DNA of 64,000 nucleotides, taken from positions 977-64,976 of the IMG/VR virus record IMGVR_UViG_2974564184_000001, one strand, 5' to 3'. The stretch's first letter is position 1, and every line of letters begins with the position of its first letter. Both the position numbers and the translations under genes were made by a program. Source of the stretch: a virus. Its lineage: Duplodnaviria; Heunggongvirae; Uroviricota; Caudoviricetes. The notes under the pieces were generated by a model. That model searched no databases, was not told where the DNA came from, and was given only the letters and a program-made list of their open reading frames with translations. Shown in pieces: positions 36,613 through 45,088 of the stretch.

Positions 36613-36820
36613 CAGTTTCTCCTGATTTTAGTCCGTCCAGGGCGATGGTCGTTTCACAACTATCACCGTATTCTTTGTGGAGACGGAGATAGTCCTCCGG
36701 CCCCGACCAGTCATTGTCCTTGGTTTTCCAACCATCTGCGAAAGCATCTTCAACGATGGTGATCAACTCCAGACGGGAGATGGTTATTTGGTCAGACAGG
36801 CTTACTTGCTTTGCAGACAT
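36602..36820 (-). CDS. hypothetical small protein
   Basis: 72-aa ORF. Confidence 0.35.
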   Translation of the reverse strand: MSAKQVSLSDQITISRLELITIVEDAFADGWKTKDNDWSGPEDYLRLHKEYGDSCETTIALDGLKSGETDVD

Positions 36821-37701
36821 GTTTTGCCCTCCAAGTGATCTTCAACCATCTTGATCAATTCAGGGTCACTGAACGCATCAACCGCGCCTTTATCCCAGTG
36901 TAAGATTCCAGCCTTGTCGAGGTTCTGCATGTCGCTTTTCGAGTAGACCGCACTGTTCCAATCGGTAGACATAGCTGCCTTCTGTGCCGCTTCTGCATTG
37001 TAGAGGTTAATTTCCACAACCTTCGCCCCCAGTTTCAGCTTGGGCTTCAACATATAGCGGAAGTCAATAACCTGCATCGAGCAACCAACGACCAGAATCA
37101 GATCCTGAGAGTTAATCGTGTAGCCAAGCTCGTACATATCATTGTACAGAGGCGCACTCTCTGAGAAGAATACCACATTTGGTTTCGCCCAGTGATAATC
37201 TTTCGGGTCAAAGTCTTCACCCGGAGCCAGTTCCAACATTTCTTCGTGGCCCATCGGCTTCTTGATCACACGCATCTCATTAAGGTAGCCGTGAACATGA
37301 ATGATATCATCCCGAGGAACACCTGCACGTTCCAGTAAGTCGTCAACGTTGGTTGTCAGATTGATAACTTGACCCGGGAAGCGATTGTACCACTCCGCCA
37401 CACGCAGGTGCGCCAGATTCGGGCCTACCGTAGGCAGTTCTTTACGACGCTTCTCGTAAAATTTATGCGTCAGATAGTACAGGTTCTCGCCAAAGGTGTT
37501 TGGCTGTTCCGAAACAGCGTTCGGAGGTGGATTTTCACTGTTACGGTGATGGAAACCCGCCTGGAAACCCGGGGCGTAGCACACATCGTCCAATGCGTAC
37601 TCATCCCAGAGCGCTTTTCCGCTATCCGTATCGGTACGGAAGGTACGGACTCCGCTCTCAGCGGAGAATCCAGCACCAGACACTACGATAAGGCGGCGCA
37701 T
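36802..37701 (-). CDS. Sir2-family (sirtuin-like) NAD-dependent protein
   Basis: VVSGAGFSAESGVRTFR (GAGISxxSGIPxFR), TTNVDDLLERAG (TQNIDxL), HVHG (HLHG). Confidence 0.8.
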   Translation of the reverse strand: MRRLIVVSGAGFSAESGVRTFRTDTDSGKALWDEYALDDVCYAPGFQAGFHHRNSENPPPNAVSEQPNTFGENLYYLTHKFYEKRRKELPTVGPNLAHLRVAEWYNRFPGQVINLTTNVDDLLERAGVPRDDIIHVHGYLNEMRVIKKPMGHEEMLELAPGEDFDPKDYHWAKPNVVFFSESAPLYNDMYELGYTINSQDLILVVGCSMQVIDFRYMLKPKLKLGAKVVEINLYNAEAAQKAAMSTDWNSAVYSKSDMQNLDKAGILHWDKGAVDAFSDPELIKMVEDHLEGKTCLQSK

Positions 37702-41420: not shown

Positions 41421-41708
41421 TTAGGATTCGATTGAGAGCGTTACAGAGATTCCACTGAGATCCACCAGCTTGATGTTACTTTGCATATGATCGTCTGTCA
41501 ACCCGGCCAGGGTTGTTACAGACACATTCCTGCGCCTCATTCGTTGGCGTACAGCCGGGAGATAGTTACCGAAGACCTGCTCCTCAGAAACACCATCAGG
41601 TAAAACAACACAAACTTCCTGTTCTTTCATGCACTCGTGAAATACTTCACGAGCCATCATCAAACGACTAACCTCAACTGCACTCATTGGCTTCTTACGT
41701 TCTTTCAT
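41421..41708 (-). CDS. hypothetical protein (first gene of leftward operon)
   Basis: 95-aa ORF with GGAG RBS; promoter upstream. Confidence 0.45.
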   Translation of the reverse strand: MKERKKPMSAVEVSRLMMAREVFHECMKEQEVCVVLPDGVSEEQVFGNYLPAVRQRMRRRNVSVTTLAGLTDDHMQSNIKLVDLSGISVTLSIES

Positions 41709-41734
41709 TCCGGTCTCCTTGTTAAGATGCTGCT

Positions 41735-41763
41735 ATCATACACTGAGTGACTCAGGAGTCAAC
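41735..41763 (-). promoter_or_regulatory. sigma70-like promoter (TTGACT-N16-TATGAT, minus strand) with embedded palindrome CTGAGT-C-ACTCAG
   Basis: read on minus strand: TTGACTcctgagtcactcagtgTATGAT then AAGGAGACCGGA-ATG of gene 41421..41708. Confidence 0.5.
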
Positions 41764-41860
41764 AAAAAGAAACAACAAACCCCCTATAAGGTCTTTAAGA
41801 TCTTAAAGTCTTTTGTTTTTATGTTTTATAAGTTAGTTTAGATCATAAGTTAGTATTGTA

Positions 41861-41974
41861 TACCCGACCGGGAATAATTAGGTATACCCGATTGGGAATA
41901 ATTAGGAGTTGACAGGTGTTGGGATGAAGTGTAGGCTATGACCCTAAATATACCCGAGAGGGAATAAATAGGAG
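41861..41974. repeat. three 24-bp direct repeats TATACCCGA-NN-GGGAATAA-N-TAGG (two tandem, one 42 bp downstream) flanking a TTGACA box
   Basis: 41861-41884, 41885-41908, 41951-41974; third copy abuts the TAGGAGG RBS of gene 41980. Confidence 0.8.
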
Positions 41975-41979
41975 GGTGT

Positions 41980-42348
41980 GTGGAGATAAGGCTTGGGGAA
42001 TCCACAGTGCAGATCAGGAAAGGGGCATACCTTACTGTTCCAACTGAGTGGGTTTTCGATGAGAGACTCTCCCCGCAGGATTTGCAAAGACTGATGAAGC
42101 TGTGGTGGCGATATGATTACTTCAAAAGCCTTAACCCAAGTGCGGGTGAAGAAGTTTTCTTCCCGTCACAGAAATCGCTTTGCCAACTCTTCGGGTTGAG
42201 TGAAAAATCGCAACCTAAGGTTTCAGAATTCTTGAAAAGGATGGAAGACTTAGGGTACATTAAACGAATCAGGTCTGGGTTTGTCGATACATCGGGTAAC
42301 GCGAAGCCAAGACACTTCATAATTGTCAACAGAGGAGACAAAACATGA
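41980..42348 (+). CDS. winged-helix DNA-binding protein (candidate regulator/iteron-binding)
   Basis: GTG start 4 nt after TAGGAGG; SQKSLCQLFGLSEKSQPKVSEFLKRMEDLGYIKR resembles wHTH. Confidence 0.45.
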   Translation: MEIRLGESTVQIRKGAYLTVPTEWVFDERLSPQDLQRLMKLWWRYDYFKSLNPSAGEEVFFPSQKSLCQLFGLSEKSQPKVSEFLKRMEDLGYIKRIRSGFVDTSGNAKPRHFIIVNRGDKT

Positions 42349-43196
42349 ACAACGTAACACTTCAACTGAACAACTTACAGGTTCCTGTCAAACACTTCAC
42401 CTTCAACGGTGGTGAGGAACAGGTTGTTATCGACCAAGCAGCCTCCCCGAAAGGTCGTGTGGCCTACGTGGATATCACTGCAAAGCTGAAAAGCTCAATG
42501 GATGTTATGACCCTGGTTATGCTGACTGATGCCTGCCGTCACATCCACAACCTGGATGATTGTGCTCGTTTCACTCTGCATATGCCATACATCCCTTACG
42601 CTCGTCAAGACCGTGTGATGAACGCAGGTGAAGCTGCTGCGGTGAAAGCATTCGTGAACGTGATCGCGGGACTGAAATTCGACAAAATTGTTGTCGCTGA
42701 TCCGCATAGCGATGTTGCTACCAATCTGCTGGATAACATCGGTGCTCGCCTGGAGGTAATCTCTCAGGACACCTTGTTCTCTGAATATATGGGAAACACT
42801 GGTGAGATCAAACGCAACACTCGCATTTGCACCGTGGGGCGTGGTAATCCGGTAATCGTCGCCCCTGATGCAGGCGCTCGCAAGAAAGCCCAGAAGGTTG
42901 CTGACCGTTATGGTTTCCGAATTGTAGAGGCTGGAAAAGTTCGTGATGTCCGGGATGGTAAGATCACCGGAACTTCCGTTCATGATGATGTGACCGGACT
43001 TCCTTGTATCATTGTGGACGATATCTGCGACGGTGGTCGTACTTTCGTTCCGCTGGCGGCGGCTCTGAAAGAGAAAGGTGCAAGCCAGGTAATCCTGTAC
43101 GTTACTCACGGCATCTTCTCAAACGGTAAACAGTTTCTTCTCGACGCAGGTATTGAGCAGGTTCATGCCTATTATGACTGGAAGGAGAACTTCTGA
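42345..43196 (+). CDS. ribose-phosphate pyrophosphokinase homolog (PRPP synthetase-like; candidate ADPR-PP synthetase of NAD reconstitution pathway)
   Basis: PYARQDR, DPHS, IIVDDICDGGRT PRS-family motifs. Confidence 0.75.
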   Translation: MNNVTLQLNNLQVPVKHFTFNGGEEQVVIDQAASPKGRVAYVDITAKLKSSMDVMTLVMLTDACRHIHNLDDCARFTLHMPYIPYARQDRVMNAGEAAAVKAFVNVIAGLKFDKIVVADPHSDVATNLLDNIGARLEVISQDTLFSEYMGNTGEIKRNTRICTVGRGNPVIVAPDAGARKKAQKVADRYGFRIVEAGKVRDVRDGKITGTSVHDDVTGLPCIIVDDICDGGRTFVPLAAALKEKGASQVILYVTHGIFSNGKQFLLDAGIEQVHAYYDWKENF

Positions 43197-43369: not shown

Positions 43370-45088
43370 ATGATTAATATGAACCCGCTTTTCGCAACTG
43401 ATTTCTACAAGCCGTCACATGCTGACCAGTACAATCAGAACAGCGAAGTAATCTTCTCGAACTTCACACCTCGTTCAGACAAACTGTTCCCACACTTCTC
43501 AGATGATGACCATCGTGTGGTTGTTGTCGGCACACAAGGTGTAGCGATTAACTTCCTGGTTGAATACTGGAATGACCAATTCTTCAAAAAACCGAAAAAC
43601 GAAGTGATCGGCGAGTACGTTGAAGAACTGAACCTGTCTCTGGGTATTCCGGTTGACAAAATTCGCACTGAACACATCGAAGCGCTGCATGATCTCGGTT
43701 ATCTGCCGTTAGAACTGCGTTCACTGCCGGAAGGTTCATTGGCCCCGGTACAAGTTCCGGTGTACACCATCCACAACACTGACCCGCGCTTCTTCTGGCT
43801 GACCAACTATTTCGAGACCGCTCTGTCGGCTGAGACCTGGAAGGTTATGAACAACGCAACTATTGCACACCAGTATTTCAAACTGTGCAAAGGTTTCAGT
43901 GACGAAACGTGTGATACTGCTGATCACTTGATGTTCCAGTGCCACGATTTCAGCTTCCGTGGTCTGAGCGGCATTGCGGACGCATACAAAAACGGCTTCG
44001 GTCACTTAACTTCTTTCTACGGTACTGATACCATCCCGGCAATTCGTTACGCTCGTCGTTACTACGGAATGCAGGGACAGTTCGTTGCAGGTTCAATCCC
44101 GGCATCTGAGCACAGTGTTGCAACAACAAACATCGGCGCGATTATCAAAAATCTGCTGAAAGACCCGAACTTCAAAGGTGCAACGCTGGACGAACTGCGT
44201 TATGCGGCTGAACTCGTGTTCTTGGAAAAGTACAGCACTGAAATTTATCCGAACGGATTGTGTTCGTATGTTTCTGACAGCTACGACTACTGGGCGGTTA
44301 TCCTGGCAATGCTGCCAGAGCTGAAAGATGAGATCATGGCTCGTGAAGGTAAGCTGGTAATCCGTCCAGACTCCGGTGACCCGATTCGCATCATTGCAGG
44401 TTATCGTTGGGTTGAACTGAAACAGTTCTCTGGCATCAATGCTGAGATGGTTCTGTTGCCAGGCGGCAAGTTCGTATCTTCTCGCGATATGTACGATGCG
44501 ATTCCTTGCGACGATACCCCGGTTGCTTATCACTTTGCGAAGCTGACCGAGGCGAATTTCAAAGAAGAGCAATTCGTCCCGGATCACATCGTGCATGGCA
44601 CCATTGAGTGTCTGTGGGATACCTTCGGTGGTCACCTGAACTCGAAAGGTTACCGTGTTCTTGATTCGCACATCGGCCTGATTTATGGTGACTCAATCAC
44701 TGTTGAACGTGCCAAAGCGATTATGCAGCGCCTGAAAGAGAAAGGTTATGCGTCAAGCAACATTGTGTTCGGTATCGGTTCGTACACTTACAACTACAGC
44801 ACTCGCGACAGCTTGGGCTTTGCATGTAAAGCGACTGGTTCCATCATCGCCGGAGAAGAAATCCTGGTGACCAAAGAGCCAAAAACAGACATGAAGAAAA
44901 AGTCTGCAAATGGTTTCCTGAAAGTGATCACCGACAAAAACGGTGTGTACAAACTGGTGGACGGTCTGAGCCTGGTAGACATCCAGGACGAGGATAATGA
45001 ATTAAAAATCATTTTCCGAAACGGTAAGCTGTACCGTAATACGACCCTGACGGAAATCCGTGAGCGTCTCATCGGACAGAAATCGTAA
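43370..45088 (+). CDS. nicotinamide phosphoribosyltransferase homolog (NAMPT/NadV-like; candidate Namat)
   Basis: AAGGAG RBS before ATG 43370; LFATDFYKPSHA N-terminal NAPRTase-family motif; 572 aa. Confidence 0.8.
   Translation: MINMNPLFATDFYKPSHADQYNQNSEVIFSNFTPRSDKLFPHFSDDDHRVVVVGTQGVAINFLVEYWNDQFFKKPKNEVIGEYVEELNLSLGIPVDKIRTEHIEALHDLGYLPLELRSLPEGSLAPVQVPVYTIHNTDPRFFWLTNYFETALSAETWKVMNNATIAHQYFKLCKGFSDETCDTADHLMFQCHDFSFRGLSGIADAYKNGFGHLTSFYGTDTIPAIRYARRYYGMQGQFVAGSIPASEHSVATTNIGAIIKNLLKDPNFKGATLDELRYAAELVFLEKYSTEIYPNGLCSYVSDSYDYWAVILAMLPELKDEIMAREGKLVIRPDSGDPIRIIAGYRWVELKQFSGINAEMVLLPGGKFVSSRDMYDAIPCDDTPVAYHFAKLTEANFKEEQFVPDHIVHGTIECLWDTFGGHLNSKGYRVLDSHIGLIYGDSITVERAKAIMQRLKEKGYASSNIVFGIGSYTYNYSTRDSLGFACKATGSIIAGEEILVTKEPKTDMKKKSANGFLKVITDKNGVYKLVDGLSLVDIQDEDNELKIIFRNGKLYRNTTLTEIRERLIGQKS

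Follow-up and report, generated by a model that had tools for sequence, protein, structure and literature searches.

The gp087-gp088 spacer of Erwinia phage Hena1 as a putative feedback operator and candidate replication origin

We analysed a stretch of 64,000 nucleotides, hereafter the window, which belongs to Erwinia phage Hena1 (NC_048828.1, 148,842 bp; Vequintavirinae, genus Henunavirus); record positions are obtained by adding 976 to window positions. The study concerns a 271-bp spacer, with gp087 on one side and gp088 on the other, that carries three copies of a 24-mer beside AT-rich DNA. These copies are very probably bound by gp088 itself, a small winged-helix protein. The fuller proposal, in which the spacer with its cognate gp088 sites is a feedback operator and probably also an iteron-type origin, seems to us evenly poised. 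The operator and origin roles are not exclusive, and we think that both apply. A preliminary description of this region had pictured iterons, an AT-rich element and an adjacent winged-helix protein as candidate binder. The initiator-like fold of gp088 and the recurrence of this trio at other loci lend support to that picture.

Semi-palindromic sites and the adjacent winged-helix protein

The 24-mer TATACCCGAnnGGGAATAAnTAGG is present three times on the + strand of the spacer (Table 1), two copies standing in tandem at 24 bp and the third lying 66 bp away. The number of copies and their layout are as described before, though the coordinates then given were 2 bp too high. These are the only matches in the window at up to 3 mismatches, against 0.00 expected from 100 shuffles, and no further real copy was found anywhere in the 148,842-bp genome with up to 5 mismatches allowed. 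Every copy consists of an 18-bp core, TATACC-N6-GGAATA, with arms palindromic at 5 of 6 positions, and a tail, ATTAGG or AATAGG. Semi-palindromic dimer sites fit better than the plain direct iterons suggested initially; furthermore, only the tandem pair is universal, copy 3 being lineage-specific.

The sites are closely interwoven with a rightward promoter, composed of TTGACA 2 bp beyond copy 2 and TAGGCT 17 bp further, and with the translation signals of gp088. Relative to the predicted transcription start near 41945, the core centres lie at about -77, -53 and +12. It had been noted that a TTGACA box directly follows the tandem pair and that the third copy lies at the ribosome-binding site of the winged-helix gene; both observations were confirmed, copy 3 ending inside AGGAGG. 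In geometry only, the arrangement matches initiator sites that overlap or abut a rep promoter, with site 2 ending 2 bp before TTGACA and site 3 between the -10 box and the ribosome-binding site. Since TAGGCT fits the -10 consensus at just 3 of 6 positions, a promoter scanner gives no call for this promoter. TTGACA and GTGTAG are kept in relatives, and FBKp34 has an annotated promoter at the equivalent position. As a separate observation, AUAUACCC (41948-41955) of the Hena1 leader can pair, as RNA, with GGGUGUGU (41974-41981; -9.4 kcal/mol, z -3.1), covering part of the ribosome-binding site and the GUG start; this pairing is not conserved in KB57 and PVP-SE1.

Conservation of the repeats in related phages had been proposed as a test, and it was borne out. 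Alignment with Seunavirus, Mydovirus and other phages gives 71-75% identity over gp088 and the spacer from window position 41794, a level equal to that of coding sequence. The sites, their spacing and the adjacency to TTGACA are kept in Seunavirus, Mydovirus, Avunavirus and one Stephanstirmvirinae phage, the layout being retained over four genera. FENT2, KB57, AV124, Ro1 and PVP-SE1 share two ATAAGTTAGT-type direct repeats, two tandem sites at 24 bp (mostly perfect TATTCC-N6-GGAATA), TTGACA and, 58-60 bp on, site 3 beside the ribosome-binding site. Av05 and FBKp34 carry two tandem sites at 25-26 bp with TGTCCC/GGGACA arms, which differ from TATTCC/GGAATA by two compensatory changes, so that symmetry is kept. 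A close Hena1 relative in IMG/VR (82% identity, S77L) has the site TATACT-N6-GGTATA.

Comparison of 18 loci, taken from phage records, IMG/VR and metagenome contigs, revealed that residue 78 of gp088 varies together with the arms. This residue is Gln in 11/11 loci with TAT../..ATA sites and Arg in 7/7 loci with TGT../..ACA sites, and it stands at the start of the predicted recognition helix (helix 75-90 in the model). Arg78 is present in at least three lineages (Av05, FBKp34 and the phiTE/L025 clade); the Arg-type protein of Av05 is 65% identical to the Gln-type protein of Hena1, and that of FBKp34 is 75% identical to the Gln-type protein of L027. The co-variation at all 18 loci, together with the joint replacement of gene and sites described below, leads us to predict with good confidence that gp088 binds the 24-mers, a case nearly as strong as computation alone can make, and it supports the earlier suggestion of the adjacent winged-helix protein as the binder. 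The predicted recognition rule is of the one-residue/one-base type, Gln78 going with A and Arg78 with G.

In other phages the position of gp088 (type A) is occupied by a different winged-helix gene (type B), whose product of 105-107 aa shares only 18% identity with gp088 and carries the RefSeq name 'replication initiation protein'. Type B repeats, two copies of TCAATTTGAGCATAGGC at 23-bp spacing, abut the ribosome-binding site. Carriers are pEp_SNUABM_01, a member of the Hena1 genus, 4MG and GAP31 (Seunavirus) and Mydo (Mydovirus). Type A was found in 74 records and type B in 34, both within the same genera (Mydovirus, Seunavirus, Henunavirus), and the two record listings do not overlap, save for the doubtful NINP13076. 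In KB57 (type A) and Mydo (type B), flanks of about 98% identity enclose some 500 bp that cannot be aligned (L003:1000-2000 versus L017:1730-2630): identity ends on the left at ...TTATTGTTTTTAAAGA and resumes at the prs ribosome-binding site. These sharp boundaries indicate that the winged-helix gene is transferred jointly with its palindromic sites and the AT-rich direct repeats.

Two observations on individual cassettes can be added. Salmonella phage NINP13076 (MZ326168.1, 161 kb) carries a type A gene at about 146.5 kb and a type B gene at about 157 kb, and may be a chimeric or concatenated assembly or a genuine double-cassette phage. PVP-SE1 gp097 (L004:1866-2423; 186 aa, phrog_25806), present also in FENT2 and Ro1, lies between the winged-helix gene and prs and has an initiator-like winged-helix N-terminus and an endonuclease-like C-terminus.

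In the AlphaFold2 model of gp088 (mean predicted local distance difference test score, pLDDT, 86.5), structured residues 2-116 all belong to the winged-helix fold, with the extra N-terminal hairpin and long helix typical of DnaD/RepA_N N-terminal domains (NTDs). The RepA-iteron complex 5kbj is the top Foldseek match, and initiator NTDs are placed clearly above regulators, ordinary winged-helix regulators scoring at most 7.3. Matching viral models are mostly phage replication initiators of 250-350 aa, plus Hena1 gp130. As modelled, gp088 would therefore be a DNA-binding NTD of RepA_N/DnaD type. Among PHROG profiles, those of DnaD-like helicase loaders and of proteins for replication initiation give matches at 1.5e-6 to 7e-4, the family of gp088 itself being phrog_8453 (function unknown). 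Assignment to a family by sequence was rejected, with nothing at cut-off in Pfam, NCBIfam or the PDB sequence search: the best Pfam scores are 20.8 bits for HTH_5 (cut-off 22) and 17.1 for HTH_36 (25), MarR scores 14.4 (24.6), NCBIfam ArsR/SmtB reaches 13 against a cut-off of 55, and ArsR appears in the PDB search at E 0.13. The family is tiny, with 22 clusters (50% identity) among 1.84 billion representative proteins; a few members reach 233-273 aa, their extensions having no recognisable replication domain. An effector-binding or enzymatic second domain, as in the nicotinamide adenine dinucleotide (NAD) regulators NadR, NiaR, NrtR and NadQ, was not found in gp088, and NadQ surfaces only as a weak generic winged-helix fold match. 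We consider that gp088 works like a RepA_N-type NTD, yet we do not file it as a RepA_N family member.

The AT-rich GATC element and related modules

Next to the sites lies an AT-rich region with short repeats, as in iteron origins, which is a candidate DNA-unwinding element. The A+T content is 75-82% over 41784-41863, and the duplicated ATAAGTTAGT and the palindrome CTTTAAGATCTTAAAG, both noticed earlier, are indeed there. A search of the 148.8 kb found no ATAAGTTAGT in the genome besides these two copies; the repeats are kept in all type A cassettes and absent from type B. The left part of the block is homologous to an element conserved nearly base for base in Seunavirus and Mydovirus, and also to an element after Hena1 gp130. 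This GATC element is located left of the cassette boundary and reads AAAGATCTTGTTTTTAGATCTTATGTTTTATTGTTTTT in Seunavirus/Mydovirus and TTTAAGATCTTAAAGTCTTTTGTTTTTATG in Hena1. Phages of types A and B share it almost unchanged, and from genus to genus it is nearly invariant where the flanking genes are about 75% identical. Non-coding AAGATCTT occurs in Hena1 only at this locus, after gp130 and in the terminal repeats. The latter (genome 418 and 148,741) are direct repeats of 519 bp and contain AAAAAGATCTTG and more GATC sites.

On the gp087 side, the leftward promoter TTGACT-N16-TATGAT encloses a perfect palindrome, as had been reported, and an orthologous promoter is present in pEp_SNUABM_01. 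The palindrome does not hold up as a conserved operator, since it is absent from this phage, the closest relative sharing the promoter. Relatives have strong back-to-back promoters, each matching the consensus at 11/12 positions, and their rightward transcript crosses the AT-rich element. The origins of lambda, T4 and T7 are likewise crossed by transcription. Just 3' of the strong upstream rightward promoter, relatives also carry a covarying palindrome (KB57 piece L003, about 1268-1282; also L002, L004, L011 and L016-L018), which reads GAGTCACCGACTC in KB57, GAGTCAACGACTC in FENT2, GAGCCACTGGCTC in PVP-SE1 and CGGTGGACACACCG in pEp_SNUABM_01. It could be a 5' stem-loop or a further operator; Hena1 has neither this palindrome nor that upstream promoter.

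Two further cases of the trio of a small winged-helix gene, tandem palindromes and an AT/GATC element were found, in which the repeats follow the gene. Hena1 gp130 (94 aa, HTH_36; genome 132,005-132,289) is a structural paralogue of gp088. It is followed by the palindromes TGACAAATTTGTCA and TGACACAAATGTCC, by AT-rich TAAAGATCTTAAAGATCTT...GATCTTTTTGTTCTTATGG and then by a promoter, TTGACA-16-TATTGT, so that the AT/GATC element stands just upstream of this promoter. The gp130 module spans genome positions 132,005-132,441 and lies 3.9 kb from the global GC-skew minimum (128,431). In the V5-like phages FV3, pangalan and Bas54, a 116-aa protein (type C; phrog_12838) is followed by four units of 21-22 bp, TGTCCG-N5-CGGACA, and then by AT-rich repeats of 8-9 bp and GATC sites. 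This protein is annotated as 'putative transcriptional regulator' and also as 'replication initiation protein', and some V5-like records annotate the array merely as 'repeat_region'.

For the type C module, fitness data are available from a transposon-insertion map of Bas54 obtained by HIDEN-SEQ. The type C gene bas54_0212 was classed as 'Intermediate', with 17/20 TA sites hit and a mean count of 13.6, the flanking genes having mean counts of 135-171; the tiny annotated open reading frame bas54_0213 was 'Intermediate' as well (4/7 sites, mean 18.1) (10.1101/2025.11.20.689424, Extended Data Table 8). From its position, the array overlaps bas54_0213 (132,621-132,722). The figures for the two therefore indicate that the type C gene and the repeats give the same fitness cost, about 10-fold, and neither of them is essential. 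These data fit gene and repeats being partners in one function, and they are compatible with one of several origins or with a regulator. The insertion-free intergenic region of about 2 kb in Bas54 was considered as a competing origin at a divergent junction and rejected, since it does not correspond to the locus studied here: enclosed by a + gene and a - gene, it is convergent, and it probably holds the genome ends.

Operator, origin and competing explanations

In the mechanism that we propose, gp088 dimers would very likely occupy the tandem pair at the -35 box plus site 3, the A/T-TAGG tail giving direction. This occupancy would probably feed back on expression of gp088, prs and nadV. Feedback is suggested by the position of the tandem pair, next to the -35 box of a promoter whose -10 box is poor, and by that of site 3, between this -10 box and the ribosome-binding site. 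The upstream pair, in an activator-type position, would help RNA polymerase, and the downstream site is in a repressor or roadblock position; since site 3 occurs only in the Hena1/Seunavirus/Mydovirus group, this negative arm would be lineage-specific. Furthermore, the sites, the type-specific AT-rich direct repeats and the GATC AT-rich element could together constitute an iteron-type origin, or one of at least two, a step to which we give slightly less than an even chance. As an NTD-only 'mini-initiator', gp088 would mark or distort the origin, whereas unwinding and loading of the phage T7-like primase-helicase and polymerase would proceed via the AT-rich element and transcription from the flanking promoters. 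Such a design would resemble P1 oriR/repA or RepA_N replicons, whose initiator sites also serve in autoregulation of the rep gene. The sites adjoin the AT/GATC element whatever the promoter geometry, which the origin model explains and a purely operator function does not.

Several results weigh against this proposal. Only two tandem sites and a third are present, the spacings in relatives (23-26 bp) seem out of helical phase, and site 3 is absent in L019, in Av05 and in the FBKp34 group. Hena1 and seven related modules contain no DnaA box (TTWTNCACA), the single match with one mismatch falling within a gp088 site, and no IHF consensus WATCARNNNNTTR. Likeness to the oriC 13-mer is weak in Hena1, with 2 mismatches and 59 such matches genome-wide, which is background; relatives have matches with 0-1 mismatch, which we keep as a lead only. 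No Pfam RepA_N model (PF06970) matches gp088 at E <= 1, and no Pfam or NCBIfam model reaches its cut-off. As the winged-helix fold fills the 122 residues in the model, gp088 would have no domain for recruiting a helicase or primase. The gene always stands beside prs-nadV, which fits a plain operon regulator too, and the Bas54 data concern the type C module rather than gp088 and show it to be important but not essential. Finally, the GC-skew check suggested in the preliminary description shows a local minimum precisely at this locus (window 41784), the global one being located at the other strand switch (genome 128,431). Since skew tracks gene orientation, it is confounded by transcription direction, and GC/AT skew is uninformative as an origin test. 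Indeed, the authors of the rV5 study reported that skew analysis showed only transcription switches (PMC3606486).

The main competitor is that the locus is an operator and nothing more, a possibility to be taken seriously although we lean against it. Accordingly, gp088 would be an ordinary transcription factor that times or limits itself, prs and nadV, and the AT-rich DNA would be promoter-associated, as an UP-like or nucleoid-protein site. Indeed, the sites bracket the promoter, sites 1 and 2 at its -35 box and site 3 past the -10 box, ahead of the ribosome-binding site, but the universal tandem pair near -53/-77 is in no repressor position. A type A or type B gene heads prs-nadV at every examined locus, and the FBKp34 region also faces a NadR-like operon; however, gp088 lacks the effector-binding domain of NAD regulators. 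The absence of any domain beyond the winged helix and the weak ArsR/MarR/Sta1-type profile matches suit a regulator, whereas the fold comparison ranks initiator NTDs clearly above regulators. The V5-like homologues are annotated 'putative transcriptional regulator', Bas54 mutants are viable, and the AT/GATC element after gp130 is just upstream of a good promoter. On the other hand, in the V5-like and gp130 modules the repeats lie downstream of the gene, off its promoter, and still beside the AT/GATC element. Near-identity of this element between genera, against about 75% in the flanking genes, also speaks against a purely regulatory locus.

It is improbable that the cassette is the footprint of a selfish, recombination-prone insert whose repeats serve as recombination or targeting sites. 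The sharp boundaries within flanks of about 98% identity and the scattering of two alternative cassettes in three genera would suit such an insert. Moreover, homing endonucleases are common in these genomes, and the next gene in PVP-SE1, FENT2 and Ro1 has an endonuclease-like C-terminus. However, neither cassette type contains a recombinase or nuclease, and the sites are fixed relative to promoter and ribosome-binding site. The protein-DNA co-variation suggests specific binding maintained over a long time. One cassette boundary coincides with a conserved functional element and the other with the prs ribosome-binding site, which is what homologous exchange between flanks would produce.

An element acting as RNA, in which the repeats are hairpins of the 5' untranslated region (translational operator, mRNA stabiliser or attenuator), is very unlikely and was rejected, with no relevant Rfam match at E <= 1 and no conserved fold. 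Co-variation of the arms would also suit a stem, the transcript includes copy 3, which reaches the ribosome-binding site, and the upstream rightward promoter of relatives would transcribe all copies, but co-variation with a protein residue is unexpected for a stem. The Hena1 leader does fold (z = -3.1), yet by pairing other bases; no structure is seen in relatives (z +0.17 and +0.35), the tandem pair is no more structured than shuffled sequence (z -1.4), and copies 1 and 2 of Hena1 are upstream of its sole rightward promoter. Finally, a general phage promoter or host-factor motif repeated here by chance can be dismissed almost entirely. The TTGACA after copy 2 and the TAGG(AG) tail of every copy, which resembles a ribosome-binding site, would suit it, but neither the 24-mer, even at 5 mismatches, nor ATAAGTTAGT occurs elsewhere in the 148.8 kb and the motif changes along with the adjacent gene.

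Coming back to the combined operator and origin, a wider hypothesis can be put forward, which we regard as speculative and rather unlikely in its full extent. Replication of Vequintavirinae and related myoviruses may start at 'mini-initiator + iteron' cassettes that are exchangeable and adjoin a conserved GATC/AT-rich unwinding element; their genomes would have multiple origins, specificity types would be swapped between phages that are otherwise nearly identical, and the initiator itself would tie the onset of NAD-salvage gene expression to origin occupancy. Each cassette may then comprise an NTD-only protein of about 100-120 aa, RepA_N/DnaD-like, and its private semi-palindromic sites. In Hena1, the positions concerned may be 42.8 kb and 132.3 kb, close to the two strand switches. 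Types that do not cross-react (A, B and C; Gln78/TAT versus Arg78/TGT) may create replicon-specificity groups in strictly lytic phages.

Known systems and genomic context

In RepA_N replicons, the iterons are direct repeats of semi-palindromic character, and their inverted sub-repeats converge on an A-tract (PMC7145576). The sites of the relatives fit this description of the targets of RepA_N initiators such as S. aureus pSK41/pTZ2162 RepA and Vibrio cholerae PLE RepA. Indeed, semi-palindromes with A/T-tract centres (TATTCC-TTTTTG-GGAATA, TGTCCCC-AAAAC-GGGGACA and TATGCC-AAAAAA-GGGAATA) were found in KB57, PVP-SE1, L019, FBKp34, Av05 and L028. The RepA of the PLE satellite drives replication through the lytic phage's own replisome. 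In contrast to RepA_N initiators, gp088 has no C-terminal domain and no Pfam RepA_N match. Hena1 has only 2+1 sites, placed at the promoter of the gene rather than in a separate origin or inside the gene, and their centres, CGACCG, CGATTG and CGAGAG between 6-bp arms repeated directly at 24 bp, contain G/C instead of A-tracts.

In P1 oriR/incC-repA and in pPS10, an AT-rich region with GATC-bearing short repeats, initiator sites and the rep gene follow each other, the sites overlap or abut the rep promoter, and one protein both initiates and autoregulates. Hena1 shows the same order of AT-rich GATC region, sites and gene, with sites at the promoter. It differs by having no DnaA boxes and fewer sites, by a protein of DnaD/RepA_N type instead of the Rep_3 type with two winged helices, and by its replicon, a 149-kb lytic myovirus with its own polymerase and primase-helicase. 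By analogy, the locus could also be compared with lambdoid O/ori-lambda, where an N-terminal winged helix binds tandem sites beside an AT-rich region and where phages exchange the initiator together with its cognate sites as a single specificity module. Proteins named 'lambda GpO N-terminal' are among the viral fold matches of gp088. However, the lambda iterons lie inside the O gene and the O C-terminal domain recruits P-DnaB, features that gp088 does not share.

The V5-like module (FV3_00072, rV5, bas54_0212/0213) belongs to the same subfamily, lies on the same side of the same strand-switch region, encodes the same small winged-helix class and has tandem palindromes TGTCCG-N5-CGGACA beside AT-rich 8-9-mers and GATC. 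There, the repeats are downstream of the gene, in four copies and in helical phase, prs-nadV is missing, and tblastn detects no sequence similarity between the protein and gp088. With MarR/ArsR repressors, gp088 has in common a small winged helix, a presumably dimeric state, palindromic sites at its own promoter and weak HTH_5/MarR matches. It differs from them in that no profile is at cut-off, an N-terminal hairpin and a long helix are added to the fold, as in DnaD/RepA_N NTDs, and its main sites lie upstream of the -35 box, not over the core promoter.

Initiator or regulator sites by an AT-rich element that autoregulate the adjacent gene are of a known kind. What is unusual is the protein limited to an initiator-type NTD, the exchangeable specificity cassettes in strictly lytic phages of 140-150 kb, and the link to a NAD-salvage operon. 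In the literature on Hena1, on Vequintavirinae transcription and origins and on wHTH-PRTase, we found no description of the 24-mer repeats or of a role for gp088. No replication origin is known to have been mapped in V5-like and related phages, which are widely used in therapy and biocontrol against E. coli, Salmonella, Klebsiella, Cronobacter and Erwinia. The locus offers a compact, testable candidate, a fragment of about 200 bp and a 122-aa protein, with natural cassette swaps as controls. If the origin reading is true, the DNA-binding NTD alone of RepA_N-type initiators can serve a large lytic phage, and origin specificity is modular and exchangeable beyond temperate phages and plasmids. 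If only the operator reading is true, a regulator of the phage NAD-salvage operon is defined, plus orthogonal protein-operator pairs.

Table 1. Features of the gp087-gp088 spacer and its surroundings (window positions), with the type C arrays of two related records
Feature	Position	Strand	Remark
gp087	41421..41708	-	95 aa, phrog_4868 (function unknown); heads the leftward block
Leftward sigma-70-like promoter, TTGACT-N16-TATGAT	41735..41762	-	10/12 consensus positions
Perfect palindrome CTGAGT-G-ACTCAG	41743..41755		In the leftward-promoter spacer; Hena1-specific
AT-rich block	41784..41858		75-82% A+T; GATC palindrome, T-rich run, ATAAGTTAGT pair; candidate DNA-unwinding element
16-bp palindrome CTTTAAGATCTTAAAG	41793..41808		GATC at 41799-41802
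ATAAGTTAGT direct repeat, copy 1	41828..41837	+
ATAAGTTAGT direct repeat, copy 2	41845..41854	+	17-bp spacing
Site 1, TATACC-CGACCG-GGAATA + ATTAGG	41859..41882	+	Core centre about -77 from predicted transcription start
Site 2, TATACC-CGATTG-GGAATA + ATTAGG	41883..41906	+	Adjoins -35 box; core centre about -53
Proximal rightward promoter, TTGACA-N17-TAGGCT	41909..41937	+	Consensus -35 (41909-41914), weak -10 (41932-41937)
Site 3, TATACC-CGAGAG-GGAATA + AATAGG	41949..41972	+	Between -10 box and ribosome-binding site, about +5 to +28
Shine-Dalgarno AGGAGG of gp088	41970..41975	+	Gene starts with GTG; shares last 3 nt of site 3
gp088	41980..42348	+	122-aa winged-helix protein, phrog_8453; RepA_N/DnaD-NTD-like fold; predicted binder of sites 1-3
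prs	42345..43196	+	Ribose-phosphate pyrophosphokinase; start overlaps gp088 stop
nadV	43370..45088	+	Nicotinamide phosphoribosyltransferase; downstream within the same operon
Type C array, phage FV3	L032:435-518
Type C array, Bas54/MaxBurger	record 132,648-132,731 (L034:1149-1232)

The spacer separates a 34-kb leftward block, headed by gp087, from a 52-kb rightward block in which gp088 is followed by prs, nadV, small genes, 26 tRNAs, lysis genes and structural genes. Since the gp088 stop overlaps the prs start (ATGA, 42345-42348), the sites stand at the head of a gp088-prs-nadV operon. Hena1 also encodes a Sir2-like NAD-dependent deacetylase, a PnuC-like transporter and a nicotinamide mononucleotide adenylyltransferase, at window positions 36802-37701 and, beyond the window, at genome positions 97,875-100,106; with prs and nadV, the NAD-salvage set is full and split over three loci. 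The gp088-type cassette of FBKp34 and of contigs L027 and L028 lies between a NadR-like operon and prs-nadV, as recognised in the two contigs from Pfam matches on called genes. Within the cluster of 26 tRNA genes, the RefSeq 'tRNA-sup(tca)' (tRNA-TERM; window 49362-49469) is 108 nt in length, which is unusually long for a tRNA.

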